Part shown: positions 19,461 to 39,063 of the stretch, one piece after another
Layout: each line of letters opens with the position of its first letter
How positions within the stretch are numbered: position 1 is the stretch's first letter
Source: an uncultured delta proteobacterium
GTDB lineage: Bacteria > Desulfobacterota > Binatia > DP-6
Direction of reading: 5' to 3'
Assembly (NCBI GenBank): GCA_963851365.1
Contig: CAWKPA010000006.1
Span: 49,353 to 113,352, forward strand
DNA length: 64,000 nt
Program-made: the position numbers and the translations under genes
The notes under the pieces: generated by a model
The model's input: only the letters and a program-made list of their open reading frames with translations
Database searches by the model: none
Told to the model about the DNA's origin: nothing

Positions 19461-20582
19461 GTGATTCGCCCCGATCGGCTGAAACGGTTCTTCCTCGACC
19501 TGGTCGGAATCGACAGCATCTCGCGGTGCGAGGGCCGCCTCGCCGCCCGCCTGGTCGACGAATTGCGCGACCTCGGCGCCACGATCACGTTCGACCGCGC
19601 GCACGAAGCCGTCGGCGGCGAGGTTGGCAACATGGTGGCCCGCATTCCCGGCACCACGGCGGCGCCACCATTTCTGCTCTGCGCGCACATGGACACGGTG
19701 GAGCCGGGCCTCGGCGTTCGAGCGGTCGACGAGGGCGACGTGGTGCGGAGCGACGGCACCACCGTGCTCGGCGGTGACGACAAATCGGGCATCGCCATCG
19801 CCTGCGAAGCGGTCCGCGCGGCTCGCGAACGCGGGGTGCCGCATCCGCCCGTGGATCTGGTGTTCACCATCTGCGAGGAGCTCGGACTGCTCGGGGCGCG
19901 ACACCTCGACATCACGCTCGTCGGCGCCCGCCGCGGGCTGGTCTTCGACAGCGACTCGCCGGGCGTCGTCTTCACCCGCGCCCCGGGCTCGCACGCGCTC
20001 GAGGCCGTGGTACACGGTCGCGCCGCGCATGCCGGGATGGCGCCCGAGCAGGGCGTGAACGCCATCCAGGTGGCGTCGGAGGCGATCGCCGCCATGCGTC
20101 TCGGCCGCATCGACCCCGAGACGACGGCCAACGTCGGTCTGATTCGGGGCGGCCGCGCCATCAACATCGTGCCCGACGAGGTGCGGCTGCGCGGCGAGGC
20201 CCGCAGCCACGACTTGGCACGCCTCGACGCGCAGTGCAGGCACATGCGCGGCTGCCTGGAGGCGGCGGTGGCACGTCACCCCGGCGCGCGGCTCGACCTC
20301 CGGATCGACCCGCTGTACCAGCCGATGGCGATCCCGGACGACGCGCCGGTCCTGCAGGTGCTCCGAGCCGGGGCCGCGGCCGCGGGCCACACCGTCCGCG
20401 CCGCTGCCATGGGCGGGGGGTGCGATGCCAACGTCCTCAACCGTCTCGGCTTCGAGGTGGTGAATCTCGGGACCGGCATGCGCGATATCCACACCACCAG
20501 CGAGTGGGTGCGGGTGAGCGACATGGTGGCCGCCGCCGAGGTCACGCTGGCGACGCTGGAGGTGGCGGCGACGGCGCGCTAG
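19461..20582 (+). CDS. M20-family metallopeptidase (peptidase T/tripeptidase-like)
   Basis: Metal-binding motifs HMDTV and GGDDKSGIA. GTG start at 19461; the gene is divergent from the panE fusion. Confidence 0.8.
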   Translation: MIRPDRLKRFFLDLVGIDSISRCEGRLAARLVDELRDLGATITFDRAHEAVGGEVGNMVARIPGTTAAPPFLLCAHMDTVEPGLGVRAVDEGDVVRSDGTTVLGGDDKSGIAIACEAVRAARERGVPHPPVDLVFTICEELGLLGARHLDITLVGARRGLVFDSDSPGVVFTRAPGSHALEAVVHGRAAHAGMAPEQGVNAIQVASEAIAAMRLGRIDPETTANVGLIRGGRAINIVPDEVRLRGEARSHDLARLDAQCRHMRGCLEAAVARHPGARLDLRIDPLYQPMAIPDDAPVLQVLRAGAAAAGHTVRAAAMGGGCDANVLNRLGFEVVNLGTGMRDIHTTSEWVRVSDMVAAAEVTLATLEVAATAR

Positions 20583-21544
20583 CTCGCTGTCGCCTCCCCG
20601 GCGTCGGCAGCCGGCCCCGCCCGCAGTCGAGGCAGTTCCGCTCCAGACGCCAAGAACACCAGCGCTCCGACCACGCCCCCGAGGGCCGTCAGCAGCCACC
20701 AGAGCAGGCCCATGACGACCGCCACCGACGCATCGACGCCGAGGACGCCGAGAAGCCACAGATAGCCTCCCTCGCGCACGCCGAACCCGCCGATGCTGAT
20801 CGGCAGCGCCATCATCAGGCTCAGGATCGGGTGCATGACCAGGCAATAGGAGAAGGGAATCGCCGCGCCGGCGGCCCGACCCAGCAGATACTGCACGCCC
20901 ACCTGCGAGAGATGGAAGAGGAGCGAGAGCGCCGCCACCCGCAAGAGCATCCCGCGGTCGCGCCAGAACGGCGCAAGGTCCTGTTCCACGTGCCTGCGGA
21001 GACGATTGCCCGGCGGCAGAACGCGGACGAGGCGCGGACACATCCACCAGGCCACGACCAGCGCGAGTCCGCCGGCGATCATCGCCATGCTGAGGAGCCG
21101 CGGCAGCCGATAGCCTGGGAACGCCAATAGCGCCGCCGCACCGAGCGCCATCAAGATCGCGAGTCCGCTGATGCGGTCGAAGACGACCGAGTTGAGCGCC
21201 AGCCCAGGGCGCCGCCCGCCGGCCAGATAGAGCCCGCGGGCGACGTCGCCACCGATGGTACTGAGCCCGAAAACGTTGAGGAACATGCCGATGAAGTAGT
21301 AGCGCGCGTAGGCTCCGAGCGGGCGTGTCAGCCCGACCGACGACCCGAGCAGCCACCACTTGACGCCGCTCAGGACCTGCCCGGCGAGGAACAGCGCGAT
21401 GGGCGGCACCAGCGCGGGCAACCGCACCCCGGCCCCCGCCGCCCAGAGATCGCCCCGATCCACGGCGCCGAGGATCCAGGCCACCACGGCGACGCTGATC
21501 GCGGCCCGCAGCGCCCACTGTGCGATCGCGCGCGGCGGAGGCAT
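20579..21544 (-). CDS. UPF0104/flippase-like membrane protein (second paralog)
   Basis: 321 aa, multi-TM, with the same family pattern as the 12469..13548 protein. The true start is the internal MPPPRAIAQW at 21544. Confidence 0.65.
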   Translation of the reverse strand: MPPPRAIAQWALRAAISVAVVAWILGAVDRGDLWAAGAGVRLPALVPPIALFLAGQVLSGVKWWLLGSSVGLTRPLGAYARYYFIGMFLNVFGLSTIGGDVARGLYLAGGRRPGLALNSVVFDRISGLAILMALGAAALLAFPGYRLPRLLSMAMIAGGLALVVAWWMCPRLVRVLPPGNRLRRHVEQDLAPFWRDRGMLLRVAALSLLFHLSQVGVQYLLGRAAGAAIPFSYCLVMHPILSLMMALPISIGGFGVREGGYLWLLGVLGVDASVAVVMGLLWWLLTALGGVVGALVFLASGAELPRLRAGPAADAGEATAS

Positions 21545-21637
21545 CGGCGGATTTTGCCCGGTGCCGTGCCGCTTTCCAATCGCGCCCGAACGGGGCTTTC
21601 TTGACTTTGTCGGGCGCGGCCGAGTAAGCGCTCGCCG

Positions 21638-22948
21638 ATGCCAGGGGTGGACCGACGGGACGGAGCGGACCTGATCGTGGTCGGTGGAAGCGTGGGCGGG
21701 CTCGCGGCCGCCGTCACCGCAGCCGACCGCGGGTGCCATGTGGTCGTCGTCGAGCGCACCAAAGAGCTGGGCGGCGGCGCGGCGGCCGCGGGCGAAGCCG
21801 TGATCGCCGCTGGATCCCGGTGGCAGCGCGAGGCGGGCATCGAGGACGACGCCGCCCGGCTCGCCGCCGACCTCCTGGGCGCCGGCGCCCCGGCGGGGCG
21901 CGCGCCGCTGCTTCACGCCCTGGCCAACCAGAGCGCGGTCCTCGTCGAGTGGCTGGCCGATCGCTGCGGCACCACCCTCCAGCTGGTCCCTCCGAACCCC
22001 GCGACGCCGGGTCCGGCGCGGCGGCACGCCGCCGAGCAAGGCGGCGCCAGTCTGGTCGCCGCCCTGGCGCGGTTGGTCAGCCGACACCACCGGATCCGCG
22101 TGCGGCTGGCGACCGAGGCCACGGGGCTCCTGCGCGATGAGGGCGGCGGTGTCACGGGTGTCGCCGTCAAAGGTGACCGGCGCAGTCCGCCGACGGTCTC
22201 CGGCCGCGTGCTGTTGGCGTGCGGCGGCTTCGCGGCCGACGACGCACTGGTCGCCGAGCATTGCCCGAGCGCGGCGGGGCTGCCGGTGGGCGGCACGACC
22301 ACCGCGAGCGGCGACGGCCTGCGCTTCGCGCTTGCCGCCGGCGCTCGCACCGCGGGGCTCGACCGCTGCGCGGTGACGGCGCTCCTCGCCCTGCCTGTCC
22401 AGCTCGCGGCTCCCGCCGCCATGCTCGCCCTCGGCGCCGTGCTGGTGAACCAGGCGGGACAGCGCTTTGCCAGCGCCACCGACGACGGGCCGGCGCTCGC
22501 CGGCGAAGTACGCGCGCAGCCGGGGCACATGGCCTACCTGGTGTTCGACGACCGCATCGCCACCGTCGTCGGCGCCGACCCGTTCGTCGAGCACGTCCTG
22601 CTGCCGCGGGCAGCACGCCGCGGCGCGACCACCGCCGATCTGGCGAAACAGTTCGAGCTCGACCCGGAGGGCATCGCGGACTCCGTCGCCGCCACCACGC
22701 TCGTCCCGCCGTTGCGCGCCATCCGTGTCACCGGCGCGCGGCTGCGCACGCTCGGCGGCGTCGTCGTCGACGCACAGGCGCGGGTCCTCGACGCCGCTGG
22801 TCAGCCCATCTCCGGGCTGTACGCCGCCGGGGGCGTCGTCGAGTCACTCGGCGTGGAGCCGGACCTCGTGGCGCTGCACGCGCTCGGGCTGGGGCGCCTC
22901 GCGGCGCTCGACGTCATCGCGGTCGCAGCGGCCGCCGCCGACGCCTGA
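21638..22948 (+). CDS. FAD-dependent oxidoreductase (fumarate-reductase/KstD-like flavoprotein)
   Basis: N-terminal FAD-binding motif VVGGSVGGLAAA ... VVVVE and a C-terminal LYAAGGV motif. Confidence 0.7.
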   Translation: MPGVDRRDGADLIVVGGSVGGLAAAVTAADRGCHVVVVERTKELGGGAAAAGEAVIAAGSRWQREAGIEDDAARLAADLLGAGAPAGRAPLLHALANQSAVLVEWLADRCGTTLQLVPPNPATPGPARRHAAEQGGASLVAALARLVSRHHRIRVRLATEATGLLRDEGGGVTGVAVKGDRRSPPTVSGRVLLACGGFAADDALVAEHCPSAAGLPVGGTTTASGDGLRFALAAGARTAGLDRCAVTALLALPVQLAAPAAMLALGAVLVNQAGQRFASATDDGPALAGEVRAQPGHMAYLVFDDRIATVVGADPFVEHVLLPRAARRGATTADLAKQFELDPEGIADSVAATTLVPPLRAIRVTGARLRTLGGVVVDAQARVLDAAGQPISGLYAAGGVVESLGVEPDLVALHALGLGRLAALDVIAVAAAAADA

Positions 22949-22949
22949 G

Positions 22950-23180
22950 TCAGTGCGCCCGCTGCCGCGGCTGCCGCGCCGCGCCCGGCGTCACGCACAG
23001 GTTCACCAGGGCGAAGAACAGTTCGTCGATCGACTGGTAGACCCAGGGAGAGCTGCCGCCGGGCTCGTGGAAGTCGTCCGCCCGCGGGCTCCAGCCACGC
23101 AGGTCGTCGCCATACACGGGGTAGACCCCCGCGCCCACACGCAGGTAGGTGTGCGGTTGTTCGGCAAACGCGCGGTTCAT
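22950..23180 (-). CDS. small hypothetical protein
   Basis: 76 aa (MNRAFAEQPHTYLRVGAGVYPVYGDDLRGW...). The ATG overlaps the acyltransferase stop in an ATGA; it fills an otherwise 228-bp convergent gap. Confidence 0.35.
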   Translation of the reverse strand: MNRAFAEQPHTYLRVGAGVYPVYGDDLRGWSPRADDFHEPGGSSPWVYQSIDELFFALVNLCVTPGAARQPRQRAH

Positions 23181-24049
23181 CCGAAGAACACCGATCGGCG
23201 TCGATTCTTGAGCCGGGTGACCATGCCCTGCAAGCGCCGGCGAACCCGGACCGCCTCGTCGTGCGCCTCCCGGAACGGTCCGTCACCGGACGCGCGCAGC
23301 CGCATGGGGGCGCCGAAAGCAATGAACCACTTGGTGGGAAGCGGGAGAGCGCCCAGCGGCCCGAGCAGGGGGAAGAACGGGGTGAGCGGCAGATACGGCA
23401 CGCCGAGCGTCTTGCCCACGCTCTCCACCCGGCCGACCAGCGGGTAGATCTCTTCGGCGCCGACCACTGCGACGGGGACCACCGGCACGTCGCACTGCAC
23501 GGCGAGCCGGGCGAAACCCGGGCTGAACGCCCGGAGACGATAGCGCTCGCTGAACGGCTTCGCGACGCCCGAGACACCCTCGGGGAAGAGCAGCACGGCC
23601 TCGCCACGGTCGAGCAACGCGCGCGCGTTCTCTCGGCTGGCGACGACGCCCCCCACCCGGCGATAGAAGGTGTCCAGCGGCGCGACGCCTTCGACGAAGC
23701 GATCGTAGAGAAACCGCACCGCACGACGCCGGAGCGTATCGACCGCGGTGACGATCATCGCACCGTCGAACGGCAAGGCGCCCGAGTGGTTGGCCACCAG
23801 CAACACGGGCCCGCAGACCGGCACACGCGACGCCCCCGTCACCGCGACGCGCCAGTAGCGATCGTGCAGGAAGCGGCACGCGGGCATCATGGCCTGGCGG
23901 AACTCGAGGTCGAAGCCGAACGGGTCCGCGGGCGCGGCGCGCCGTGCCCCCGGCGCGTCGACCGCCACCGTCGTCGCCGGCTCGTTCACGCCCATGCCTC
24001 CGCTCTGCACGTCCAGCCTCTCGGGGTCGCCTATAGCCCGGGCATCCAA
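23177..24049 (-). CDS. 1-acyl-sn-glycerol-3-phosphate / lysophospholipid acyltransferase (PlsC family)
   Basis: Acyltransferase motifs VANHSGALPFDG and LLFPEG. Confidence 0.75.
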   Translation of the reverse strand: MDARAIGDPERLDVQSGGMGVNEPATTVAVDAPGARRAAPADPFGFDLEFRQAMMPACRFLHDRYWRVAVTGASRVPVCGPVLLVANHSGALPFDGAMIVTAVDTLRRRAVRFLYDRFVEGVAPLDTFYRRVGGVVASRENARALLDRGEAVLLFPEGVSGVAKPFSERYRLRAFSPGFARLAVQCDVPVVPVAVVGAEEIYPLVGRVESVGKTLGVPYLPLTPFFPLLGPLGALPLPTKWFIAFGAPMRLRASGDGPFREAHDEAVRVRRRLQGMVTRLKNRRRSVFFG

Positions 24050-24076
24050 CCAGGCACAAGGCAGCGTGCGGGAATT

Positions 24077-24493
24077 TCAGTCGAACGCAACCGTGGCCGT
24101 GCCGATGACGAGGCGCTCACCGTCGTCGCTCTCGAGCCAGACGTCGATCTCGGCGGTCCGCGCGGCGGCGTCGGTGTGCGTCACGGCGCCGCAGAGGCGG
24201 ATGGTCTTGTCCGGCAGGACCAGACCGCGGAACGTGGTGCCCAGGCGACGCAGCCGTCCCGGCCCGGCCCAGCCGTCGATCAGCGCCGTGAGGAGCCCCA
24301 TGCTCATGTTACCCGGGGTGATCATGCCCGGCAGCCCCTCGCGGCGGGCCGCCTCGTCGTCCGTGAAGCGGGGGAAGTAGTGATCGACCGCGCGCGCGTA
24401 CGCGCGGACCTGGTCCTTCGCCAGGAAGTGCTCGACCGGCCCCAGGTCGTCGCCCTCGACGACGTCGTCGAATCGGAGAGGCGCCACCGTCAC
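24077..24493 (-). CDS. MaoC-like (R)-specific enoyl-CoA hydratase/dehydratase, hotdog fold
   Basis: 138 aa with MaoC dehydratase sequence (GLPGMITPGNMSMGLL...). Confidence 0.8.
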   Translation of the reverse strand: MTVAPLRFDDVVEGDDLGPVEHFLAKDQVRAYARAVDHYFPRFTDDEAARREGLPGMITPGNMSMGLLTALIDGWAGPGRLRRLGTTFRGLVLPDKTIRLCGAVTHTDAAARTAEIDVWLESDDGERLVIGTATVAFD

Positions 24494-24927
24494 TCCCCCC
24501 CGCGATACATCATGCGGTTGTCGACGGTGGCGACCACCTCGTCGCGTTGATTCGTCAGGGTGACGCGGACCACCACGAACACCATGCTGCCGCTGCGACC
24601 CGTCTTCTCGTAGATGTCGTGCAGGGTGGATACGACGGTGATGCGGTCGCCTGGCCGGATCGGCACGCCGAAATCGATGTCCTTACCGGCATCGAAGCTG
24701 ACCCGCGATCGCAGGTCATCGGGAAGCGTGTCCGGGAAGAACGTACGCCCCCGGAAGCGCACGCAGTACGTCGGATGCGCGATCAGGTCGTCGCCGGGCT
24801 CGACATAGCACCGATGGCTTTCCCCGAGCGCCCGAGCAAAGGCGATGAGTTCCTCGGCGGGCACGGGGGGGTACTCGGTCCGGTCGAACTCCCGGTCGAG
24901 GATGCTGCGATCGAACTCGAGTGCCAT
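24490..24927 (-). CDS. MaoC-N-like hotdog protein (HadA-like partner subunit)
   Basis: 145 aa (MALEFDRSILDREF...). Its stop overlaps the catalytic MaoC start, giving a heterodimer-style pair. Confidence 0.65.
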   Translation of the reverse strand: MALEFDRSILDREFDRTEYPPVPAEELIAFARALGESHRCYVEPGDDLIAHPTYCVRFRGRTFFPDTLPDDLRSRVSFDAGKDIDFGVPIRPGDRITVVSTLHDIYEKTGRSGSMVFVVVRVTLTNQRDEVVATVDNRMMYRGGE

Positions 24928-24973
24928 GCGCCCCGGGACGCTAGGCAATCGACCGCCGCCTGGCAAGCGCGCG

Positions 24974-25162
24974 TCAGGCCAGGCCCCGCGGCTCGGAATC
25001 TCCCAGGAGCACGAGCGCGTTGAACGCCGCCTCCCATCGGCCCGCACGAGCATACGCCTCGATGGCGCTCGGCGTGATGCAGATGCTCCCGCCGGAACAT
25101 TCCCAGATCTCGACTTGGCGACCCGCGATCCAGATGCGCCGCCCCCGCTCTTCGACAATCAT
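24974..25162 (-). CDS. small hypothetical protein
   Basis: 62 aa (MIVEERGRRIWIAGRQVEIWECSGGSICITPSAIEAYARAGRWEAAF...); tightly linked to flanking genes in the same operon. Confidence 0.4.
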   Translation of the reverse strand: MIVEERGRRIWIAGRQVEIWECSGGSICITPSAIEAYARAGRWEAAFNALVLLGDSEPRGLA

Positions 25163-25182
25163 GTGCCGACTCCCCCAGGCGG

Positions 25183-25362
25183 TCACGCCGCTACGGTGGC
25201 GCGGGTGGCGTCCAGATCGAAACGCACGCCGCGGAAGTTGCCGCAAAGCTGCACCCGCCCGGAGTTCACCAGATGCACGACCGTGGCCACTACTTCGGCG
25301 TCGGTCTCTGCGATCTCGGACACGATCTCCACCAGGTCAAGCAACGTCGACTGTATCGCCAT
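25183..25362 (-). CDS. small hypothetical protein
   Basis: 59 aa (MAIQSTLLDLVEIVSEIAETDAEVVATVVHLVNSGRVQLCGNF...). A strong AAGGGAGGG Shine-Dalgarno precedes the ATG. Confidence 0.5.
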   Translation of the reverse strand: MAIQSTLLDLVEIVSEIAETDAEVVATVVHLVNSGRVQLCGNFRGVRFDLDATRATVAA

Positions 25363-25575
25363 CGTCCTGCCCTCCCTTTCGGCTACCCGATCCCCAAGCA
25401 ACTTCGGAGCCAGGCGTCCGGGAGAACCCGAGGCAGCCGGGAACGGCAGCGACCGGTCGCGGCAAGTCTCTGATTTCCCGACTGTTCCTCCACCACCCCC
25501 GCGATTCCGGCCGAACGCCCCGCGGTGCATCCGGCTGCAACGCGACTGCCACATCGCTGTGCAGGGGTGTTGGAA

Positions 25576-26532
25576 CTACACGACAGGTGTCGCCGAGGAC
25601 GGCGGGAACCGGATGTATTCGTCGATCAGCAGGAGCGCCAGCTCGGTACCGTCGGGCACCGTGTCGCCGAGTCTGCCACGCCGCCGGAGGTCGCCGAGCA
25701 GGTCCCGCATGATCCGCTCGCGGGTGAGGTCGTCGCCGTGCTCGGCGACCAGGCGCCGCTCGGCCTCGTCGCCGAAGCAGTACGCCTTCCACGAGACGGA
25801 GAACCGGATGTCGTCCCAGTGGTACCGGGCGACGGCGTCGTCGGCGGCGCCCACCCGCCAGCGATCGTTGCCATCGAACGTGAGTCGCATGCCGATCGCG
25901 AAGGCCGGCATGGCCGGGGCCGTCTCGGCTACCCGGTCGACGCCGTGGAACACGCTGTCGGTGTCGATGACGACTGCGGTGTTGTGCGCCGCCGGCACCG
26001 TGGCCGGCGGGCCGGCCGCGCCGTCGGGGTAGAAGGCGAAGTCGCCGCCGCGGCAGTCCCGGAACCACGACACCGCGGTCGCGATCGGCATGCGCCAGTG
26101 GTCGAAGAGCCCCGAGTGATGCATCACCACCAGCAGCCACTCGGGGTCCTTGGTGCGATTGGCGCCGCGAAACTCCGGGACGTCGGTGTGGACGGCCAAC
26201 TCCTGGCCGGGCACTAGGAGATTCGCGTACACGATCGCAGGCACGATCACCGGGCGGTCGTAGAGGGCGCGCGCCGCCGCCAGGAACTCCTCGTGCCAGA
26301 GAAACCCTTCGATGCCGTCGACCACCGGACGGTCGTAGGCGTACGTTTCGCGGAAGTAGTTGGTGCGCACCGCGAGCTGGTCGAACGTCTCCCGGCGCCC
26401 GAAGCGCCCGCCGGTGCGGATGTAGTTCATCGCGGCGTCGTGACGCTGGTAGAGCCCGCGGCCCAGCTCCTCCTCGATCGGCTGCTGGCCGTACATGCCG
26501 TAGCTGCCGAACTCCTCGCAGAGCCGGATCAT
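25576..26532 (-). CDS. hypothetical protein (possibly a metal-dependent oxygenase-like fold)
   Basis: 318 aa with protein-like composition and HTDVPEF / MHHSGLFDH motifs. No confident family assignment. Confidence 0.5.
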   Translation of the reverse strand: MIRLCEEFGSYGMYGQQPIEEELGRGLYQRHDAAMNYIRTGGRFGRRETFDQLAVRTNYFRETYAYDRPVVDGIEGFLWHEEFLAAARALYDRPVIVPAIVYANLLVPGQELAVHTDVPEFRGANRTKDPEWLLVVMHHSGLFDHWRMPIATAVSWFRDCRGGDFAFYPDGAAGPPATVPAAHNTAVVIDTDSVFHGVDRVAETAPAMPAFAIGMRLTFDGNDRWRVGAADDAVARYHWDDIRFSVSWKAYCFGDEAERRLVAEHGDDLTRERIMRDLLGDLRRRGRLGDTVPDGTELALLLIDEYIRFPPSSATPVV

Positions 26533-26642
26533 CGCCTCGGCGCCAGCAGCGGACAGGAGGGCGGGGAGATGCGTGTAGTGTGCGGGCACGGCAGAACTAT
26601 GGCACGACGGAACCCGGCGCGGGAAGCCGTCCCATCCCACGG

Positions 26643-29600
26643 TCACCAGGTGTCCACGCACGGTCGTTTCCGGCCGGTACGCGGGGGCGGCGGCGGCAGC
26701 GCACGGAGCGCGGTGCTCAAGCGCGTCCGCGTCTCGGCCGGGTCGATGACGTCGTCGATCTCGAACACCGACGCCATGTTGATGCCCTTGCCGTGCTCGT
26801 ACGCGCGCGCCACCATCTCCTCGAAGGCGGCGCGGCGGGCAGCGGGGTCCGCGATGGCCTCCAGCTCGCGGCGATAGCCGAGCTTCACCGCCCCTTCGAG
26901 GCCCATGCCGCCGAACTCGCCGGTCGGCCACGCGACGGTGAACACCGGGACGTGGAAGCTGCCGCCCGCCATGGCCTGCGCGCCGAGCCCGTAGCCCTTG
27001 CGCAGCACGACGGTGAAGATCGGCACCGTGACGCTGGCACCGACCACGAAGAGCCGGCAGCAATGGCGCACGAGCGCCGTCCTCTCCGCCTCGGGTCCCA
27101 CCATGATGCCGGGCGTGTCGCACAGCATCAGCACCGGCAGGTCGAAGGCGTCGCAGAGCTGGAGAAAGCGCGCCGCCTTGTCGGCGCCGTCGGCGTCGAT
27201 GGCGCCGCCGAGATGCGTCGGGTCGTTGGCGATCAGGCCCATCGGCCGGCCCTCGACGCGAATCAGCGCCGTCACCATGCCCCGGCCGAAGCGGTGGCGC
27301 AGCTCGAGCACCGAACCCTCGTCGGCCAGCGTGTCGATCACCGCGCGGACGTCGTAGGCGCGCAGCCGGTTCTCGGGGATCAGGTGGCGGAGCCGGCGCT
27401 GGTCGGCACACGTCCAATCCACCACCGGCCCCTGGAAGTACGCGAGGTATCGCTGCGCGACCCGGACCGCCTCCGCCTCGTCCGCCACCAGGACGTCGAC
27501 GACGCCGTTCGGCGCCTGCACCGACATCGGACCGACTTCCTCCGGCCGGAACACACCGAGCCCGCCGCCTTCGATCATGGCCGGCCCGCCCATGCCGACG
27601 TTGGCGTCGCGCGTCGCGATCACCACGTCGCACGAGCCGAGCAGCGCCGCATTGCCCGCGAAGCAGCGCCCCGCGACGACGCCGACCAGCGGCACCAGCC
27701 CGCTCAGGCGGCCGAAGAGGTGGAACGCCATCGTGTCGAGTCCGGCCACCCCCGGCCCGTCGCTGTCCCCGGGTCGCCCGCCGCCGCCCTCGGCGAAGAG
27801 CACGACCGGCAGGCGCCACTGCGCGGCGAGCTCGAACACGCGGTCCTTCTTGCGGTGGTTGTGCAGCCCCTGGGTGCCGGCGAGCACCGTGTAGTCGTAG
27901 GCCACCACCAGGCAGCGGGCGCGCTCCAGCCCCACGAGACTGCCGTTCACGCGCCCGATGCCGGTCACCAGCCCGTCGGCCGGCGTCCGCGCGATCAGAT
28001 CGTCGAGCGCGCGCCGGCGGCGCTGCGCCGCGACCACCAGCGAGCCGTACTCGACGAAGGAGCCCGGGTCGCACAGCTCCTCCACGTTCTCCCGCGCCGT
28101 CCGCCGGCCGCTCGCATGCCGGCGGGCCACCGCTTCGGGACGCGCGGCGTCCCGCGTGATCGCCTGGCGGCTGAGCACCTCCTCGAGATCGGGCCGCCTG
28201 GCGTCGAGGTCGACAACCCCGACGCTCCCGGTCGCGGCCACGCCGACGTCGCCCTCCTCGACGAAGGCGAGCGCGCTCCCTTCGAGCACCGTGTCGCCCA
28301 GCGCAACCAGGAAGCGCCGGACGACGCCGGCCACCGTGGAGGCGACGACGTGCTCCATCTTCATCGCCTCCAAGACCAGCAGCGGCTGTCCCGCGTGCAC
28401 CGGCTCGCCCTCACGGACTTCGACGCTCACCACGCTGCCCTGCATCGGCGCCGTCACCACTGCCGTGCCGGCCGGCGCCTCCGGGGCGCCGCCCGCCGCG
28501 GCGGGGGATGCGGCGGCCTTCCCGTGCGTCAGGACGGCCAGCGGATCGAGCGCATCGACGCGCGCGCCGGCCAACGCCGCCCCGCCCCCGGGCGCGGGCG
28601 CGCCCGGGACCGCGTCGTCCGCCGGGCCGATCAGCTCGGCGGCGTGCGCTTCGACGAAGCCGGTGTGCACCCGGTGCGCCGCCACGTCGGGGTGGCGCAG
28701 CAGGCGGCGCAGGAACGGCAGGTTGGTGGCGACCCCGGCGACGGCGCACTCGTCCGCCGCGCGAGCCGCCCGCGCCACCGCATCGGGGAACGCGCGCGAC
28801 GTGCTGTGCGCGACGATCTTCGCCAGCAGCGCGTCGAAGCGGGGATGCACGCGGGCGCCCGCACGCATCGCCGTGTCGACGCGGATCCCGGGGCCGCTCG
28901 GCAGCTCGAACGTCGTGACGACGCCGATCGACGGCCGCACGCCGCCCGCGGCATCGATCGTCTCCGCATTGACGCGCAGCTGAATCGCGAAGCCGCGGGG
29001 CGGCGGCGGCGCCGTCTCTGCCAGCTCGAGGCGATCCAGCGTCAGACCGCTCGCCAGCTCGAGCTGCAGCCGGACCAGGTCGATGCCGGTCACCGCCTCG
29101 GTGACCGTATGCTCGACCTGCAGGCGCGGGTTCACCTCCAGGAACGCGATCGCCGCATCGTCCCCCGGATCGGTCGCATCGACCAGGAACTCGACGGTGG
29201 CGAGGTTGTCGAGCCGCACCGCCCGGGCCAGAGCCAGCGCGGCCTCGAGCAGGCGCGCCCGCACGCCGTGGACCAGGCCAGGGCTGGGCGCCACCTCGAC
29301 GATCTTCTGGTGCCGGCGCTGCAGGCTGCACTCGCGCTCCCACAGATGGGTGACGGCGCCGCTGCCGTCGCCCGCCACCTGCACCTCGAGGTGCCGCGCG
29401 CGCGGCAACAGCCGCTCGACATAGAGCGCGCCGTCGCCGAAGGCCTGACGCGCCTCGGAGCGGCAGCGCGCCACCGCCTCGTCGACCTCGTCCGGCCGCG
29501 ACACCACCCGCATCCCGCGCCCGCCGCCCCCGACCACCGCCTTCACCACCGCGACGCCGCCGGGCCCGAGGGACGCGAGAAACGCGCGCACCTCGTCCGC

Positions 29601-30017
29601 GCCGACCGGAGCGGTCGACCCTGGCAACACCGGGACGCCCTGCTCCGCCGCCGTCGCACGGGCCCGCAATTTGTCGCCGAAGAGCTCGAGCAACTCCGGC
29701 CGCGGGCCGACGAACGCGATGCCGGCATCCGCGCACAGGCGGGCAAAGCCGGCGTGCTCGGACAGGAACCCCCAGCCGGGGTGAACCGCGTCGCAGCCGG
29801 CGTCGCGCGCCACGGCCACCAGCTGCGCGGCGTCGAGGTAGGCCGCCGGGCCGTCGCCATCGAGCGCGCGTACGTCGGGCACGTGGCGCACGTGCGGCGC
29901 GTCGGCGTCGTCCCGCGCGTGGACGGCGACGGCGTGGATGCCCAGCTCGGCCGCCGCCCGCGCGACGCGTACGGCGACCTCGCCGCGGTTGGCGATGAGA
30001 AGGCGCGTTGGAAGCAC
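26643..30017 (-). CDS. single-chain biotin-dependent acyl-CoA carboxylase (BC-BCCP-CT; long-chain acyl-CoA carboxylase-like)
   Basis: 1124 aa. The biotin carboxylase domain begins LLIANRGEVAVRVARAAAELG. The biotinyl domain carries EAMKMEH. The C-terminal carboxyltransferase domain has GGGRPGDSDG ... MGGPAMIEGGGLG. GTG start at 30017. Confidence 0.9.
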   Translation of the reverse strand: MLPTRLLIANRGEVAVRVARAAAELGIHAVAVHARDDADAPHVRHVPDVRALDGDGPAAYLDAAQLVAVARDAGCDAVHPGWGFLSEHAGFARLCADAGIAFVGPRPELLELFGDKLRARATAAEQGVPVLPGSTAPVGADEVRAFLASLGPGGVAVVKAVVGGGGRGMRVVSRPDEVDEAVARCRSEARQAFGDGALYVERLLPRARHLEVQVAGDGSGAVTHLWERECSLQRRHQKIVEVAPSPGLVHGVRARLLEAALALARAVRLDNLATVEFLVDATDPGDDAAIAFLEVNPRLQVEHTVTEAVTGIDLVRLQLELASGLTLDRLELAETAPPPPRGFAIQLRVNAETIDAAGGVRPSIGVVTTFELPSGPGIRVDTAMRAGARVHPRFDALLAKIVAHSTSRAFPDAVARAARAADECAVAGVATNLPFLRRLLRHPDVAAHRVHTGFVEAHAAELIGPADDAVPGAPAPGGGAALAGARVDALDPLAVLTHGKAAASPAAAGGAPEAPAGTAVVTAPMQGSVVSVEVREGEPVHAGQPLLVLEAMKMEHVVASTVAGVVRRFLVALGDTVLEGSALAFVEEGDVGVAATGSVGVVDLDARRPDLEEVLSRQAITRDAARPEAVARRHASGRRTARENVEELCDPGSFVEYGSLVVAAQRRRRALDDLIARTPADGLVTGIGRVNGSLVGLERARCLVVAYDYTVLAGTQGLHNHRKKDRVFELAAQWRLPVVLFAEGGGGRPGDSDGPGVAGLDTMAFHLFGRLSGLVPLVGVVAGRCFAGNAALLGSCDVVIATRDANVGMGGPAMIEGGGLGVFRPEEVGPMSVQAPNGVVDVLVADEAEAVRVAQRYLAYFQGPVVDWTCADQRRLRHLIPENRLRAYDVRAVIDTLADEGSVLELRHRFGRGMVTALIRVEGRPMGLIANDPTHLGGAIDADGADKAARFLQLCDAFDLPVLMLCDTPGIMVGPEAERTALVRHCCRLFVVGASVTVPIFTVVLRKGYGLGAQAMAGGSFHVPVFTVAWPTGEFGGMGLEGAVKLGYRRELEAIADPAARRAAFEEMVARAYEHGKGINMASVFEIDDVIDPAETRTRLSTALRALPPPPPRTGRKRPCVDTW

Positions 30018-31231
30018 TAGCCGCCATCCGCCCAGAAGGCCTCGACGTGCTCGAGGTCCCAGACGAACTCGTGCACCTCGACCGCGCGGCCGCCCGCGAA
30101 GCGGATGCGCAGGCACGTCGGGTTGTCGAGGACGCGCCCGTCCGGACGCCGGCCATGACCTCGAAAGAAGACGACCCCCTCGCGGTCGTCGGCGAGGACG
30201 CCCTCGACATTTAGCCGGAAGGTGCCCTCTGTGAGGGCGAGCACGCGTCCCAGGAACGCGAGGATGGCGTCGTGACCGGTGTGGTCGCCGGCGAGCGCCC
30301 CGCGCCGGCCCGGGAAATGCCAGGTGGCGTCGGGCGCGAAGGCCGCCCGAATCGCGTCGACATCGCCGGCCCGGAAGGCGTCGAACAGCGCGCGGATGCG
30401 CGCCACGTTCGGGTGGGCGGGCCGCACGAGGGCCGGCGCCCGGTCGGCGACGAGCGCCACGAGCGGCCCCAGCTTGGGCGGCGACGCCTCCAGCGTCACG
30501 CGCACGCCGTGCCCGTCGATCGCCTCGGAGCACACGGGCCCGATCGACGCGACGACGATCCGATTCAGCGCCGCACGCAGCGCCTCCGCGTCGGGCGCGA
30601 TCCGAAAGAGGTGCGCCACCTGCACCGCGCTGGTGAACACGGCCACGTCCAGCGCGCCCGCGACGAGCCCGGCGGCGGCGCGGTGCAACGGCCCGACGTC
30701 CTCGGGGAGGGCCCAGCGGTAGACCGGCACGCGGAGCGCGCGGAGCCCGCGTGCCGCGATCGCGTCGAGCAAGGCGGTGGGCGGGGCGCCGTACTCCTGC
30801 ACGGCCACCAGGCTTCCCGGGGGCAGCGACAAACCGTCGAGCACGGCCAGCGCTTCGCGCCAGGTGTGGGGCGCGGGCACCGGGCGGGCGCCGGCCACGT
30901 CCAGCTCGCGCAGCGCCGCCAGCGGCTTCGGGCCTCGCGCCACGACGGGGACGCGGCGCAGGCCGTCCAGGAGGCGGGGCGCCGCATCGCCCGCTGCCGC
31001 AGCCATGGCCCGGGTGCCGACGCCGGTCAGCAGGATCACCGCACCGAGGTCGCCGCGGTCGAAGTGGTCGATCAGCGCCTGCGTCGGACCACGCTCCGGG
31101 AGCTGCGCCTCGCGGAGTGCGGGCGCGCTCACGAGGGAGGCGCCGTGTCGGGCGAAGAGCTTCGCCATCTCGTCCGCGCGTCGCGCCTCGAAGGCGACGA
31201 TCCGGACCCCGTCGAGTGCCGCCGGATTCAT
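30017..31231 (-). CDS. HemD-like (uroporphyrinogen-III synthase fold) protein fused to a SnoaL-like/NTF2-like domain
   Basis: 404 aa. The N-terminal ~260 aa have two HemD-like half-repeats (ILLTGVGT... and VAVFTSAVQV...). The C-terminal ~130 aa look like a SnoaL/ketosteroid-isomerase-like domain. TAG stop at 30017-30019; the final G is shared with the carboxylase GTG. Confidence 0.55.
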   Translation of the reverse strand: MNPAALDGVRIVAFEARRADEMAKLFARHGASLVSAPALREAQLPERGPTQALIDHFDRGDLGAVILLTGVGTRAMAAAAGDAAPRLLDGLRRVPVVARGPKPLAALRELDVAGARPVPAPHTWREALAVLDGLSLPPGSLVAVQEYGAPPTALLDAIAARGLRALRVPVYRWALPEDVGPLHRAAAGLVAGALDVAVFTSAVQVAHLFRIAPDAEALRAALNRIVVASIGPVCSEAIDGHGVRVTLEASPPKLGPLVALVADRAPALVRPAHPNVARIRALFDAFRAGDVDAIRAAFAPDATWHFPGRRGALAGDHTGHDAILAFLGRVLALTEGTFRLNVEGVLADDREGVVFFRGHGRRPDGRVLDNPTCLRIRFAGGRAVEVHEFVWDLEHVEAFWADGG

Positions 31232-31313
31232 GCGGCACCCTGGTCGGCGACGGGGGAGCCTGTCAACCCGACGCGCGCTTGCTCGCGGTGCCCGGTCGGG
31301 ACAGTTTGCCCCG

Positions 31314-32465
31314 ATGAGTACGCCGTCCCGCGACCTCCGCGCGCTCGCCCGCGGGCTCCGTCCACTGATCGAGGCCGAGGTGGCCGCGGCCGACCAGGCG
31401 CTGACGCTCAGCCGGCCGCTCGTCGACGCCTTCGCACGGACGGGCCTGCTGCACCTGATGGTGCCGCGGGACTTCGGGGGCGACGAGGCGGACCCCAGCA
31501 CCATCCTCGACGTGTTCGCCGACGTCACCCATGCCGACGGGTCGGTCGGGTGGACGCTGATGGCGAACGCCAGCTCGACCGCCTACGTGTCGTTCCTCGA
31601 CCGCGCGGCCGGCGCCGCGATGGTGCAGGGCGAGCCCTACGGCTGCTCGGCCGGCATGTACTCGCCCATGGGGGGACAGGCCCACAAGGAGGGCGCCACC
31701 TTCCGCGTCACGGGCAACTACCAGTTCGGCAGCGGCTGCGCGCACGCGACGTATTTCGGCGGCGGCGGGTTCGAGTACGAGGACGGCAACATGGCGCCGC
31801 TCGACCCGGTCACCGGCTTTCCGGCGATGCGCTGCTACTACGTGCCCCGCGATCGCGTCGAGCTACGCGGCAACTGGGACACGCTGGGGCTCCGGGGCAC
31901 CGGCAGCTTCGACTACCACGTGCCGGAGCAAGTGGTGGAGGAGGGATGGACGTTCCCGCTCCTCCAGGCGGAGGTGCGGACCGGCGGGCCGCTCTTTCAC
32001 CTCGGCCCGATCGCGCTGGCCGGCCTCGGCCACGCCGGCTGGGCGATCGGTCTCGGCCTACGAGCGCTCGACGAGATCGAGGACGTCGTGAAGGGCGGGC
32101 GCATGCGCCTCGGCCAGACCATGTTGAAGGACCAACAGGTCTTCCAGCGCGAGCTGGGCGTGCAGCGCCAGGCGATGCGCGCGGTCACGCTCCTGGCGCA
32201 CGACAGCTTCGGCCGGGCGTACGACTGGGTGTCGCAGGGCAATCCCCTCACGAAAGGCGTGCTCGACGACACCCGGGCGGCCACGAGCTGGGTGACGCGC
32301 GTCGCGGAGGAGGCCGTGCTCTTCGCCTACCGGAACGCGGGGAGCGTCGGACTCCGCAACCCGAGTCGCGTGCAACGGTGCCTGCGCGACATGCTCACGG
32401 GCGGGCGCCACGTGTTCGTCGACGACAAGAACTTCGAGGACGCCGTCCAGCCACGCCTGAGCTGA
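31314..32465 (+). CDS. acyl-CoA dehydrogenase family protein (HsaA/DszC-like)
   Basis: 383 aa with ACAD-like sequence in the middle and C-terminal domains. Confidence 0.7.
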   Translation: MSTPSRDLRALARGLRPLIEAEVAAADQALTLSRPLVDAFARTGLLHLMVPRDFGGDEADPSTILDVFADVTHADGSVGWTLMANASSTAYVSFLDRAAGAAMVQGEPYGCSAGMYSPMGGQAHKEGATFRVTGNYQFGSGCAHATYFGGGGFEYEDGNMAPLDPVTGFPAMRCYYVPRDRVELRGNWDTLGLRGTGSFDYHVPEQVVEEGWTFPLLQAEVRTGGPLFHLGPIALAGLGHAGWAIGLGLRALDEIEDVVKGGRMRLGQTMLKDQQVFQRELGVQRQAMRAVTLLAHDSFGRAYDWVSQGNPLTKGVLDDTRAATSWVTRVAEEAVLFAYRNAGSVGLRNPSRVQRCLRDMLTGGRHVFVDDKNFEDAVQPRLS

Positions 32466-32503
32466 AGCGCCCTCACCTTGCGCGCCGCTCCCTGCGATCG
32501 CAC

Positions 32504-34669
32504 TCATTGCAGGTAGCCGAGCGCTTCGAGCGCGCGGCGGCGCTCGGGGTCCACCGGGGCGGCAGGCGGTTCCTTGGTCAGACGGCCGCCGACGACGTCG
32601 CACGAGCGCCGCAGGCCGTCGATGTAGATGGCGCCGAGCTTTGCGAGCGCCGGCTGCTCCGCGGCCAGATCATGCTGCTGGTCCGGATCGGAGTCGACGG
32701 CGTAGACGGCGACCCGGTCTCCCTGCGCGATCCAGGTGTGTCCTCCCATGCGCAGCAGCGTCTCACGGATGTTCAAGAACAGGTTCTCGGCAAACGCCAT
32801 GGGAACACGCGGGGCCGGACGGCCTTCGAGAAGCGGGGCGAAGCTGGCGCCGCGGAAGCTGGCGGGCTGCGGGACGCCGGCCAGCTCGAGGATGGTCGGG
32901 GCCAGGTCGACGAGGGAGACGATGTCGGGAACACGGCGACCGCCGGTGGCCAAGCGCGGGTGCCGCATGACCAGCGGGACATCCACCTGCTCGCGGTAGA
33001 CCGTGTACCCATGGCCGAACTGGCCGTGCTCCCAGAACTCCTCGCCGTGGTCCGACGTGATGACGACCAGGGTGTTCTCGAGGATGCCACGGCGCTCGAG
33101 CGCCCGCAGAAAACCGCCCAGCAGCTCGTCCGTGTAGCGGAGTCCTTCGTCATACGCCGCCGCAAACCAGTCCGCCTGCCCGCCCTCCGGGCCGGGCGCC
33201 CAGCGCCCCGCCACGTGCGGCGGCACCTTGTAGACCGCGTGCGGCTGGTAGGTGTGCAGGAAGAAGAAGAACGGCCGGTTCGCATGCGCGTCGATCCACG
33301 ATCGCGCGTGGGCGATCCCCTCGGGGAAACGGCCGAGCGGCGCGGCCGCGTCGGGCAGGAGTTCGCGATAGCGGTCGAATCCCCGGTCGAAGCCCATGTC
33401 GGGGTCGATCAAGCCGTCCTCGGTTACGGCGCCCGTGGCCCAGCCGGCGGCCGCGAACGCCTCGGCGAGCGTGGTGACCGTGGGCGGCAGACGCATGCCG
33501 GGCCCTAGGACGCGATGCGCGCAGGGATGCAGTGCGGTCAGCATCGACATGTGCGACCCCGCGGTCGACGGGAACGTCGACGTCGCGCGTTCGAAGATCA
33601 CTCCCTGCGCTGCGAAGGCATCCAGCAGCGGCGACGTCTCGCGGTGATACCCGTGGAGACTCAGGTGATCCGCACGCACCGTGTCGAGCGAGATGAGGAG
33701 GACGTTCGGCTGCGGACGATCGTCCCGGTCGGGAGCGATCAGCACGGGCGCGCCCCACACCGGGAAGCCGAGGGGCGCGCCGTCCCCTTCGGTGACCGCG
33801 TCGAGCACGATCGCCGTCTCGCGGCCGGCGAAGCTGCTCAGGTCGACCTCGGCGCCCAGCCACCCCCGGGCGGCGATCCGGCGCACGGGGTCGATCCGTC
33901 GCGACCACACGACGGTGCCGGTCGCACCGGGCGGCCCTGCCCGAACGCGAAACGTCGTCGGAGGGCTGGGCCCACTCCATCCCGGCACCGCAACGCCGAA
34001 GGAGACGACGAGCCCCTCCCCCGCGCGCGGGACGAGCGGCTCGAGTTCGACCACCGCACTCGTTCGCGCGCCCGACCAGGCATGCACGACCGCGAGCGCC
34101 CGGCGGCCACGATCGAGGGGACCCAACCGTACGGGGACGTGCTCCGGAAACGACGACACGTAGACGGCCTCCTGCGGCACCCCGCGAACGGCTGCCGTTC
34201 CATCCGCAGCGCCCAAGACGCGAAAGTCCCGATAGACGCTCGGCTGCGCGTCGCCGACCGGGACACCGCTGGCGGCGAGCGAGGGCAGGTCGGCCAGAAG
34301 CTGCGCGACCCGCCGCGCGCCGGCCGTCGCGACGAGGCGCGCTTCCGCGCTCCCGCTCCGCAGTGTGAGCACTTCGGGCACGAGCAGCGCGGGCCCGTCG
34401 GCGACGGGACCACGGTCGTCGAGCGTGCCGCTCGTGTCGAGCCGCATGCGCACCACCGCGCTCCGCGGCACCGTCACGGTCGACGCCGCAACCAGCCGCC
34501 GCTCGGGACACCCCGACGCCGGGCGCGTCTCGCCACCCGGCTCGAGCGCGCAGTGCGTGAACGACGCCTCGACAGCGGCCGGTCGACGCACGGACAAGCG
34601 CGCGCCGGCGGTGTCGGCGCCGAGGACGCCGAGGGCGAGCATCCCGGCCTGGAAAGAGCGTATCCGCAC
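32504..34669 (-). CDS. sulfatase-like hydrolase/transferase (alkaline-phosphatase superfamily) with N-terminal extra domain
   Basis: The C-terminal ~420 aa carry LLISLDTVRADHL, FPSTAGSHMSMLT and ITSDHGE. The N-terminal ~300 aa form a non-catalytic domain behind a signal peptide. Confidence 0.75.
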   Translation of the reverse strand: MRIRSFQAGMLALGVLGADTAGARLSVRRPAAVEASFTHCALEPGGETRPASGCPERRLVAASTVTVPRSAVVRMRLDTSGTLDDRGPVADGPALLVPEVLTLRSGSAEARLVATAGARRVAQLLADLPSLAASGVPVGDAQPSVYRDFRVLGAADGTAAVRGVPQEAVYVSSFPEHVPVRLGPLDRGRRALAVVHAWSGARTSAVVELEPLVPRAGEGLVVSFGVAVPGWSGPSPPTTFRVRAGPPGATGTVVWSRRIDPVRRIAARGWLGAEVDLSSFAGRETAIVLDAVTEGDGAPLGFPVWGAPVLIAPDRDDRPQPNVLLISLDTVRADHLSLHGYHRETSPLLDAFAAQGVIFERATSTFPSTAGSHMSMLTALHPCAHRVLGPGMRLPPTVTTLAEAFAAAGWATGAVTEDGLIDPDMGFDRGFDRYRELLPDAAAPLGRFPEGIAHARSWIDAHANRPFFFFLHTYQPHAVYKVPPHVAGRWAPGPEGGQADWFAAAYDEGLRYTDELLGGFLRALERRGILENTLVVITSDHGEEFWEHGQFGHGYTVYREQVDVPLVMRHPRLATGGRRVPDIVSLVDLAPTILELAGVPQPASFRGASFAPLLEGRPAPRVPMAFAENLFLNIRETLLRMGGHTWIAQGDRVAVYAVDSDPDQQHDLAAEQPALAKLGAIYIDGLRRSCDVVGGRLTKEPPAAPVDPERRRALEALGYLQ

Positions 34670-34792
34670 GACGTCCGCAGTCCTTCCCGGTCGCCCCGTG
34701 GGCTACGTTCGCGGGGCGAGACCCGTCAAGACGCGGCGTGGCAGCCGGCGCGCCGACGTGGCGGAACCGCCCGGCGGCAGCGTCACGTGCGT

Positions 34793-34915
34793 ACGGCGCC
34801 CCGCAGGGGCGAGCGTCTCGCCGAACTGGGCTGGAGCCCGCAGCCCATCGTGGGCATCGGCATTCGCCGCCTGATCGGGGCACGGCTGCAGGCGGAATCG
34901 GGACGCAGCAGATGA
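34793..34915 (+). pseudogene. 5' fragment of a cyclopropane-fatty-acyl-phospholipid synthase paralog
   Basis: Translation ...TAPRRGERLAELGWSPQPIVGIGIRRLIGARLQAESGRSR* is collinear with the N-terminus of the intact cfa at 44064 (NTAPRAVERFAERGWIPRPLVRLGIRRMIGDRLDAESRRD). Nucleotide identity is about 75% over ~120 bp. Confidence 0.5.
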
Positions 34916-34993
34916 GAATTCGAAAGGGCGATGTGCCGGTCAAGCCCTGGGCGAGAGCAGCACGTGTGACCGCGCCTCGTTCAGCCCGCCTTG

Positions 34994-37341: not shown

Positions 37342-37342
37342 G

Positions 37343-38494: not shown

Positions 38495-39063
38495 ATGGTC
38501 TCCCCAGCAGACCGGACTTCGCGTTTCTCGCCGCCGATCGGAAGCGCCGCTGGGTGTCGTGCACGCGCTTGCCGTCCCGCGGCCCTGTCGGTTGGCCGGT
38601 GAACAAGGCGCCGAGTCCGACGACGACACGCTGGCGCGCCTTCTCGCCGCCAAGCGAGGTACGCTGTGCGAGCGCGTGCGTCAAGTGTTCGCCACAACCG
38701 ACGAAGTCCGCCCGGTCGCATTCGCGTCCTACCGCTTCGGCAGCGCCTTCCTGCATGCCGGTTTCGCTGCCTGAGGTTCGTGGACGATGGCGCCACCGGC
38801 AGGCGGGGACGAACCGTCCACGCGCATGCGGTCGCGACATCGGCTCGTCCCTTCGGGGCCATGTCGCTGGGCAGCCCGTGCCTGCCGCCCGCTGCAGGCG
38901 CAGACTCGTCCGGCGGCGCTAGCGGGGGTGACGACGCGGCCGTCAGCCCGGCGGCACGAGGTCAGCGATTGACGGAGCCCCCGTCTGGTCGCTAGCCTCG
39001 GCAACTGCCTTGCTGCGGAATGCCCGGGGGTGCCATCCGGGCTGAAGCAGAGCCGATGCTTTC

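Follow-up and report, generated by a model that had tools for sequence, protein, structure and literature searches.

We analyzed a row of nine genes (positions 22950-31231) on the minus strand of a 64,000-nucleotide stretch of contig CAWKPA010000006.1, from an uncultured bacterium of the Binatia. We will call the whole stretch the window. The row includes a single-chain carboxylase of the LCC type (for carboxylase of long-chain acyl-CoA), and a sequence-only reading of this DNA had proposed that the nine genes form one lipid pathway with the carboxylase at its center. The GC content of the window is 72%, and we chose among gene models by the GC content of the codon positions and by start-codon context. 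All nine open reading frames (ORFs) have third-position GC content (GC3) of the coding type, and in an independent public assembly, genes of 59, 62, 145, 136, 272, and 76 amino acids (aa) were also called. In coding order, the row contains:

30017..31231, minus strand: g9, HemD with a C-terminal SnoaL-like domain, an in-frame fusion (404 aa; Pfam)
26643..30017, minus strand: g8, single-chain LCC-type carboxylase (1124 aa; Pfam and PDB match)
25576..26589, minus strand: g7, Fe(II)/2-oxoglutarate-oxygenase-fold protein (337 aa; AlphaFold model and alignment)
25397..25412, minus strand: sigma54-type -24/-12 promoter motif, TGGCTCCGAAGTTGCT (pattern match)
25183..25362, minus strand: g6, small protein (59 aa; family conservation)
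24974..25162, minus strand: g5, small protein after g6 (62 aa; conserved copies in relatives)
24490..24927, minus strand: g4, HadA-like single hotdog subunit, FAS1_DH_region (145 aa; Pfam)
24077..24493, minus strand: g3, HadB-like MaoC hotdog subunit (138 aa; Pfam)
23177..23995, minus strand: g2, acyltransferase of the LPLAT superfamily, PlsC-like (272 aa; Pfam)
22950..23180, minus strand: g1, conserved 76-aa protein (ORFs at the same place in relatives)

The members of the row are of known kinds, found here in an uncultured lineage. Pfam confirmed the domains that the sequence-only reading had recognized: HEM4 with SnoaL_2, a biotin carboxylase, biotin carboxyl carrier protein, and carboxyltransferase (BC-BCCP-CT) in one chain, FAS1_DH_region, MaoC, and Acyltransferase. 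That reading had also described the genes as linked by overlapping or nearly touching start and stop codons. All nine are indeed co-directional, and the coordinates were right, but just three of the eight junctions overlap (TAGTG at g9/g8, GTGA at g4/g3, and ATGA at g2/g1). The other gaps, from g8/g7 to g3/g2 in order, are 53, 213, 20, 46, and 81 nt. A scan for sigma70 promoters and intrinsic terminators gave nothing above the level of shuffled sequences. A search of positions 20000-34000 against Rfam gave no match at E ≤ 0.1, and a search for repeats turned up nothing beyond GC-rich matches of low identity that are attributable to chance.

The carboxylase (g8) has the domain order that had been proposed for it. 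The domains are Biotin_carb_N (residues 4-109), CPSase_L_D2 (115-329), Biotin_carb_C (346-456), Biotin_lipoyl (520-584), and Carboxyl_trans (633-1107). Its top solved relative is 4rcn_A, the LCC from Mycobacterium avium paratuberculosis (MapLCC), with 1103 bits over its entire length. Scored by itself, the CT domain reaches 693 bits against 4rcn and 646 bits against 5fif (the CT of a single-chain carboxylase), versus 242 bits or less against the beta subunit of propionyl-CoA carboxylase (PCC, or 12S) and 145 bits or less against the beta subunits of methylcrotonyl-CoA carboxylase (MCC) or GCC. Thus the CT domain groups with LCC, as the sequence-only reading expected, and on these scores we do not take g8 for a PCC, MCC, or GCC. 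The ATP-grasp loop (GGGGRGM at residues 163-169) and the biotinylation motif (EAMKME at 550-555) are invariant in three orthologs. As judged by these alignments, g8 is a genuine LCC-type single-chain acyl-CoA carboxylase.

Like MapLCC, g8 is one polypeptide of about 1100 aa with the BC-BCCP-CT order, and it keeps both motifs, but it comes from an uncultured Binatia/Myxococcota-like lineage. LCCs such as MapLCC are described as accepting C2-C16 acyl-CoAs with similar kcat and with a much lower Km for palmitoyl-CoA (Tran et al. 2015, as summarised in PMC6491548). Given the similarity to 4rcn and the description in PMC6491548, we predict, by analogy, that g8 prefers long chains and forms a homohexamer. 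The LCC gene of one relative, L004, is split into two pieces (7648-9990) on a long-read contig from a metagenome-assembled genome (MAG).

To see which genes accompany LCC, we scanned metagenomes with LCC as the anchor and obtained 16 full or near-full single-chain homologs (L083-L098; 50-63% identity). No homolog of g1-g7, g9, or g10 lies within 10 kb of any of the 16. Their recurring neighbors are acyl-CoA synthetases, short-chain dehydrogenases (SDRs), and ABC transporters. The context of g8, with hemD upstream and a 2-oxoglutarate (2OG) oxygenase downstream, is absent around these homologs.

In contrast, the second half of the row belongs to a backbone of genes that is shared across the lineage. 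This emerged from the contexts of relatives when the search was anchored on g2, whose family is highly conserved. The 5' part of the backbone encodes an abhydrolase, a thiolase-like protein (Thiolase_C_1), a DUF35 protein (zf-ChsH2/OB_ChsH2_C), and a PHP_C protein, and it ends at a variable slot. After the slot come the HadA-like and HadB-like subunits, the acyltransferase, an ORF of 69-76 aa, a FAD_binding_2 protein on the reverse strand, and LPG_synthase_TM. Further on are an M20 peptidase on the reverse strand, ApbA, JAB, and a DHO_dh-like protein; some relatives continue with PEPCK and MiaB. This order is kept in the window from 24927 down to about 13300. Because the synteny runs past the module and into unrelated housekeeping genes, the collinearity reflects the relatedness of these genomes. 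The contents of the slot differ:

L172: empty
L166-168: an HTH_8 gene on the reverse strand
P0161 contig: GMC oxidoreductase, 174-aa ORF, methyltransferase
L001: 396-aa ORF, LCC, g7, GMC oxidoreductase, 167-aa ORF
L003: LCC, GNAT fragment, g7, g6, g5, GMC, glutamate-receptor-type channel, ferredoxin
L171: LCC, g6, g5, GMC, PemK toxin-antitoxin, channel, ferredoxin (g7 absent)
window: LCC, g7, g6, g5

The prokaryotic glutamate-receptor-type ligand-gated channel is at 13560-14984 in L003 and at 7285-8397 in L171, and the PemK pair of L171 is at 5901-6528.

The four-gene module (g4-g1) is present without LCC in the outgroups L172 and L166-168 and on the P0161 contig. In a tree of the concatenated HadA-like, HadB-like, and acyltransferase proteins, the five loci with LCC (the window, L001, L003, L004, and L171) form one clade. 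Within this clade, the concatenated proteins are 74-85% identical; the loci without LCC fall outside of it and are 65-71% identical. The tree speaks against a patchy presence of LCC among equally related genomes, and the pattern fits a single insertion of LCC. The genes for the abhydrolase, the thiolase-like protein, DUF35, and PHP_C lie just before the slot in relatives (1796-4816 in L001; 5997-9041 in L172; 1-1505 and 7930-8574 in L166), but they are absent from the entire 64-kb window. This implies that the window's genome was rearranged 5' of LCC.

Among the genomes that we examined, none besides the window's has all nine genes. By gene order, g4-g1 is the sole unit that is conserved beyond the five-genome clade, while LCC sits in a variable slot between operons. 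The comparison of neighborhoods that the sequence-only reading had called for therefore went largely against it: the nine genes are not syntenic in related genomes, although LCC does lie beside the hotdog and acyltransferase genes in this one clade.

The conserved module begins with the hotdog pair. The HadA-like subunit, g4, matches PF13452 (FAS1_DH_region; E = 1.7e-16), is of the non-catalytic FAS1_DH_region type, and is 61-76% identical to its counterparts in all of the relatives that have the module. The HadB-like subunit, g3, matches MaoC (PF01575; E = 3e-8). As in HadAB, HadBC, and ChsH1-ChsH2, these are two overlapping genes for single hotdog subunits, a FAS1_DH_region protein followed by a MaoC protein, and this is the gene arrangement of a heterodimer. 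Another similarity is that ChsH1/ChsH2 occur near Ltp2, and the hotdog pair of the relatives is near thiolase-like and DUF35 genes.

When g3 is aligned to HadB (4rlj_B) and to fused MaoC dehydratases, the catalytic 'GDLNPIH' of HadB corresponds to 'DHYFPRF' in g3. We compared g3 with its orthologs from L001, L003, L004, L163, L166, L171, and L172. The position of the hydratase-2 histidine is phenylalanine in 8 of 8 sequences, and the aspartate position is H, I, S, or Q. Thus the HadB-like subunit lacks the catalytic Asp/His of hydratase-2. In sequence, the pair resembles HadB and fused HadA/HadB proteins weakly, and the NCBIfam cut-offs for HadA, HadB, or the fused model were not reached (41.9 vs. 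350, 27.7 vs. 203, and 26.5 vs. 180 bits); g4 had no NCBIfam match. Unlike the mycobacterial HadAB and HadBC, the pair has no FAS-II or mycolate context. Because of the missing dyad, the low scores, and this lack of context, it is uncertain that the pair is catalytically active. It may be non-catalytic, or it may rely on other residues.

The acyltransferase (g2) starts at 23995, which gives 272 aa, and an identical (100%) 272-aa protein is on record (P0121). It matches PF01553 with 62 bits (the cut-off is 23). Like PlsC and other members of the LPLAT superfamily, including the N-terminal domain of OlsF and the acyltransferase domain of Aas, it has the motif I histidine and an FPEG block. FPEG is invariant in the family, and so is NHSGAxPFDG, in which the aspartate lies at +7 from His70 instead of +5 (HX6D, whereas the canonical motif is HX4D). 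Its matches to Aas, OlsF, and AGP_acyltrn in NCBIfam are weak and below threshold, and it also falls short of TIGR00530, the equivalog for 1-acylglycerol-3-phosphate acyltransferases (27.4 vs. 102.95 bits). Also unlike other LPLAT proteins, it almost always has an ORF of 69-76 aa behind it. The sequence-only reading had called these genes a HadA/HadB-style pair and a PlsC-type acyltransferase. The folds were right, but given the altered residues of g3 and the unreached cut-offs for Had and TIGR00530, we take both terms to describe resemblance at the level of fold, not membership in a family.

The small ORF, g1, has orthologs of 69-76 aa (66-82% identical) right after the acyltransferase in L001, L003, L004, L166, L171, and L172, and a 71-aa ORF was called in its position on the P0161 contig. 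The g1-type ORF nearly always trails this acyltransferase family with overlapping stop and start codons. Pfam has no match for g1, g5, or g6.

In the slot, the gene after LCC is g7, which the sequence-only reading had listed as a 318-aa unknown and a part of the pathway. Alignment with its homologs places the start at a GTG (26589), which gives 337 aa. There are over 2,500 homologs, and no Pfam domain was found in any of the 120 that we listed. An AlphaFold model of g7, built from the homolog alignment, has a pLDDT of 90 and shows a double-stranded beta-helix with an HxD/E...H iron triad. The invariant residues are H134-x-D136, H215, R219, and R262-F-S264; R219 and R262-F-S264 are candidates for binding 2OG. 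In Pfam, 2OG-FeII_Oxy_3 is marginal (E = 0.12), and no model reaches its threshold. Compared to solved Fe(II)/2OG oxygenases (HygX, EvdO2, bacterial P4H, SnoK, AlkB, and PhyH), g7 is 9-20% identical and has an additional N-terminal helical part and a C-terminal helical extension. Also unlike those enzymes, its family is unusually conserved, spans several phyla, and mostly stands alone: identity is 58-89% among the best 120 proteins and 56-82% among 80 genome loci, and the labels of the MAGs that these homologs come from include Binatia, Myxococcota, Acidimicrobiia, Chloroflexia, and Opitutales.

The 80 loci are from a scan anchored on g7, with one genome per GTDB species (the best 80 of 452 relatives). 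Just three of the 80 (L001, which is the same as L008; L003; and L004) have LCC near g7 together with the four module genes, for the hotdog pair, the acyltransferase, and the 76-aa protein. In L005, L011, L015, and L076, g7 is equally similar (72-78%), but the LCC, hotdog, acyltransferase, and 76-aa genes are not nearby. Otherwise, the neighbors of g7 are variable, and the commonest neighbor family is found in 16 of 79 loci. We conclude that g7 is a 2OG-oxygenase-fold protein from an uncurated family that is highly conserved, widespread, and usually stand-alone, which counts against one pathway of nine genes. This conserved family without a Pfam model is a lead in itself.

The two tiny genes, g6 and g5, had been suggested as new components of the pathway. 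However, they come with a sigma54-type promoter motif of their own, and L001 does without the two genes. The Shine-Dalgarno sequence of g6 (GGGAGG) is strong, and g6 belongs to a family with 568 representative clusters at E ≤ 1e-3 (39 at E ≤ 1e-10), whose core is TLLDLV...EVIATVV.LVNSG.V.L.G. Copies of g6 in L003, L004, and L171 are 69-77% identical, and directly behind each of these is a copy of g5 (52-55% identical, GC3 of 0.79-0.90).

The motif, at 25397-25412, lies inside the 213-nt gap and ends 34 nt before the ATG of g6. It is the only match to TGGCNC-N5-TTGCW on either strand of the window, where 0.18 would be expected by chance. It recurs at the same place before g6 in L003 (11237-11252), L004 (11232-11247), and L171 (near 3870), and a near match is found in L173, which is an unrelated locus of the g6 family. 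TGGCNC-N5-YTGCT is found 26-35 nt before every g6-family gene that we examined. For one member of the family, the surrounding contig spans just 977 bp. These GG-N10-GC elements (TGGCAC-N5-TTGCW), at a conserved site before g6, are what a sigma54-type promoter would be expected to show. L001 has neither the tiny genes nor the motif. Since the motif recurs before g6 in relatives and is absent from the g6-less L001, we consider it a putative internal sigma54-type promoter that is tied to g6 and g5. g5 and g4 are separated by just 46 nt, with no terminator-like site, so in this genome transcripts from the promoter may run on into g4-g1. A widespread family of proteins of about 60 aa behind sigma54-type promoters is a second lead.

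At the other end of the row, the sequence-only reading had nominated the fusion of HemD and SnoaL as another new component. The Pfam hits of g9 are HEM4 (PF02602) at residues 20-258 (98.9 bits, E = 3e-28) and SnoaL_2 at 279-386 (E = 2e-18). Among the best 120 homologs of g9, the only full-length protein is g9 itself. All of the rest, from related MAGs, have a length of about 273 aa and consist of HEM4 by itself; they are 59-80% identical to the N-terminal 272 residues of g9 and end at its residues 272-277. None of these top homologs has the C-terminal SnoaL_2 domain. A homolog that is 75% identical lies in an operon of hemD, hemE, hemH, and an oxidase (URO-D, ferrochelatase, and amino-oxidase-type), preceded by ccm genes, while the neighbor of g9 is LCC instead of heme genes. 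The fusion is missing from all four of the relatives with LCC, which carry other genes upstream of LCC, and a tblastn search with the SnoaL part against all of the loci that we fetched found no copy outside the window.

The SnoaL part starts at a potential internal GTG (30406) and spans 30406-30020. We read the codons at the junction for the remnant of a stop codon and found a clean in-frame join, without a stop in the shifted frames. Genes are split or truncated in related long-read MAG contigs (LCC in L004 and GpsA in L169, at 6874-7925, each in two pieces), which suggests frameshift errors in the long-read assemblies of relatives and calls for caution about the fusion: it may have arisen recently by the joining of two genes, or it may be an artefact of assembly. 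Because its close homologs are stand-alone hemD genes, one of them in a heme operon, and because the fusion is seen only here, we do not regard g9 as a component of a lipid pathway. Most simply, g9 would be the hemD of heme biosynthesis, with a genome-specific fusion, moved next to LCC by a rearrangement.

Taken together, these results make it probable, in our view, that at least four separable units came to lie side by side in this lineage, and that the row is not one conserved nine-gene pathway. The first unit would be hemD(::snoaL), for a heme-biosynthesis enzyme, whose stop codon came to overlap the start of the carboxylase gene by chance after a local rearrangement. The second would be the LCC-type carboxylase. 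By analogy to MapLCC, it would use ATP and bicarbonate for the alpha-carboxylation of acyl-CoAs of a broad range of lengths, which would yield (alkyl)malonyl-CoA. Its gene would have been inserted into the variable slot a single time, in the common ancestor of the five-genome clade. The third would be the stand-alone g7, and the fourth would be a transcription unit of g6 and g5 from the sigma54-type promoter, probably with read-through into the module in this genome. The last would be the conserved module, in which a hotdog heterodimer is combined with an LPLAT acyltransferase and a 76-aa protein, as part of the lineage-wide backbone. Together with FAD_binding_2 and LPG_synthase_TM, this module most likely acts on acyl thioesters or on membrane lipids.

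Several observations weigh against this explanation. The nine genes share one direction, with three overlapping junctions and without a terminator-like site above chance in between, so all or most of the row may be co-transcribed. The surroundings are rich in lipid genes (two LPG_synthase_TM proteins, Mla transport, an LtaS-type sulfatase, and CMAS). In five genomes whose divergence has reached 74-85% identity, LCC is still found upstream of the module, and its retention could mean functional recruitment rather than inertia. Also, there are few informative outgroup contigs.

An alternative is a weaker tie of LCC to the module. LCC might have been recruited, within the five-genome clade, as an accessory to lipid operons of thiolase/DUF35, hotdog, and LPLAT genes. 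It would provide (alkyl)malonyl-CoA for a decarboxylative condensation, the product would be processed and transferred to a membrane lipid, and hemD, g7, and g6/g5 would be bystanders. Thiolase-fold enzymes are capable of Claisen condensations, which suits this proposal, and in L001, L003, and L004, LCC is co-oriented between the thiolase/DUF35/PHP_C genes and the hotdog/LPLAT genes. The position has been held through substantial divergence, and the surroundings are lipid-related. However, the window's 64 kb contain none of the thiolase, DUF35, and PHP_C genes, the outgroups have the module without LCC, and the hotdog pair lacks the canonical dyad. Furthermore, the slot can also contain a toxin-antitoxin pair, a channel gene, or a gene on the reverse strand, and thus behaves like a gap between operons. 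We consider recruitment of LCC unlikely, but worth keeping in mind.

A joint reading of the row seems to us quite doubtful. It would have the genes make an acyl chain that is alpha-carboxylated or alpha-branched (mycolate-like) and becomes attached to a membrane lipid, with the dyad-less hotdog heterodimer as an acyl carrier or binder and the sigma54-controlled micro-proteins as regulators.

More doubtful still is the original proposal of one operon and one pathway, in which the HadAB-like pair would dehydrate or remodel the carboxylated long-chain acyl-CoA made by LCC, the PlsC-like acyltransferase would install it, and HemD::SnoaL, g7, and the tiny proteins would be new components. In its favor are the co-directional and tightly spaced genes with their three overlaps, the lack of terminator-like sites above chance, the confirmed type of the carboxylase, and its place upstream of the module throughout the five-genome clade. 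But nearly every gene has a reason to be set apart. HemD has close stand-alone homologs, including one in a heme operon, while its fusion to SnoaL is a singleton that the four relatives with LCC lack. g7 is missing from L171 and is found elsewhere in 77 of 80 species; g6 and g5 are missing from L001 and have their own promoter; and unrelated genes break the row in L003 and L171. The module occurs without LCC in the outgroups, and the 16 LCC homologs elsewhere occur without any of the partners. The HadB-like g3 lacks the catalytic Asp/His, and the row encodes no condensing enzyme that could use alkylmalonyl-CoA. Had the row been one pathway, bacterial LCC enzymes would have gained their first physiological role, but the present evidence makes this unlikely.

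It is just as improbable that g8 is a housekeeping acetyl-CoA carboxylase that supplies malonyl-CoA for fatty-acid synthesis, with its neighbors irrelevant: all of its BC, BCCP, and CT motifs are intact, and the summary in PMC6491548 has the LCC family accepting C2-C16 acyl-CoAs with similar kcat, but the LCC gene is absent from this locus in the outgroup relatives.

With the row seen as a juxtaposition of units, its corrected annotation is useful, and we think that more is to be gained from the side observations than from the cluster. Besides the g7 and g6 families, a third lead is the lineage-wide module of a hotdog pair, an acyltransferase, and a small ORF, with a hotdog subunit that lacks the canonical catalytic residues.

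The row is flanked by three genes:

21638..22948, plus strand: convergent FAD_binding_2 flavoprotein (Pfam, 1.4e-40; at the same position in every relative with the module)
20579..21544, minus strand: LPG_synthase_TM membrane protein (Pfam, 1.6e-33; position kept where the relatives' contigs reach)
31314..32465, plus strand: divergent protein with the acyl-CoA dehydrogenase (ACAD) fold, Acyl-CoA_dh_2/HsaA-like (Pfam, and NCBIfam below threshold)

The sequence-only reading had described the last of these as a divergent acyl-CoA dehydrogenase-like gene. It is divergent and it does match Acyl-CoA_dh_2, but its best NCBIfam matches are HsaA, SfnB, and DszC, which are two-component flavin monooxygenase types, and all are below the cut-off. 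We rejected a true acyl-CoA dehydrogenase for this gene, which looks more like a group-D flavin monooxygenase by these sub-threshold matches. It is also outside of the conserved arrangement: no homolog lies beside the LCC of L001, L003, or L004.

A cfa-type methyltransferase had been noticed at a distance from the row, and we find CMAS at 43716-45158, about 12.5 kb away. The wider surroundings (32504-38653, 12469-13548, and 20579-21544) are rich in envelope and lipid genes. The envelope genes near the row include an LtaS/sulfatase-type membrane protein and two LPG_synthase_TM paralogs. There is also an Mla-like set for ABC lipid transport, with MlaE (which has a STAS domain), an ATPase, MlaD, and an auxiliary lipoprotein.

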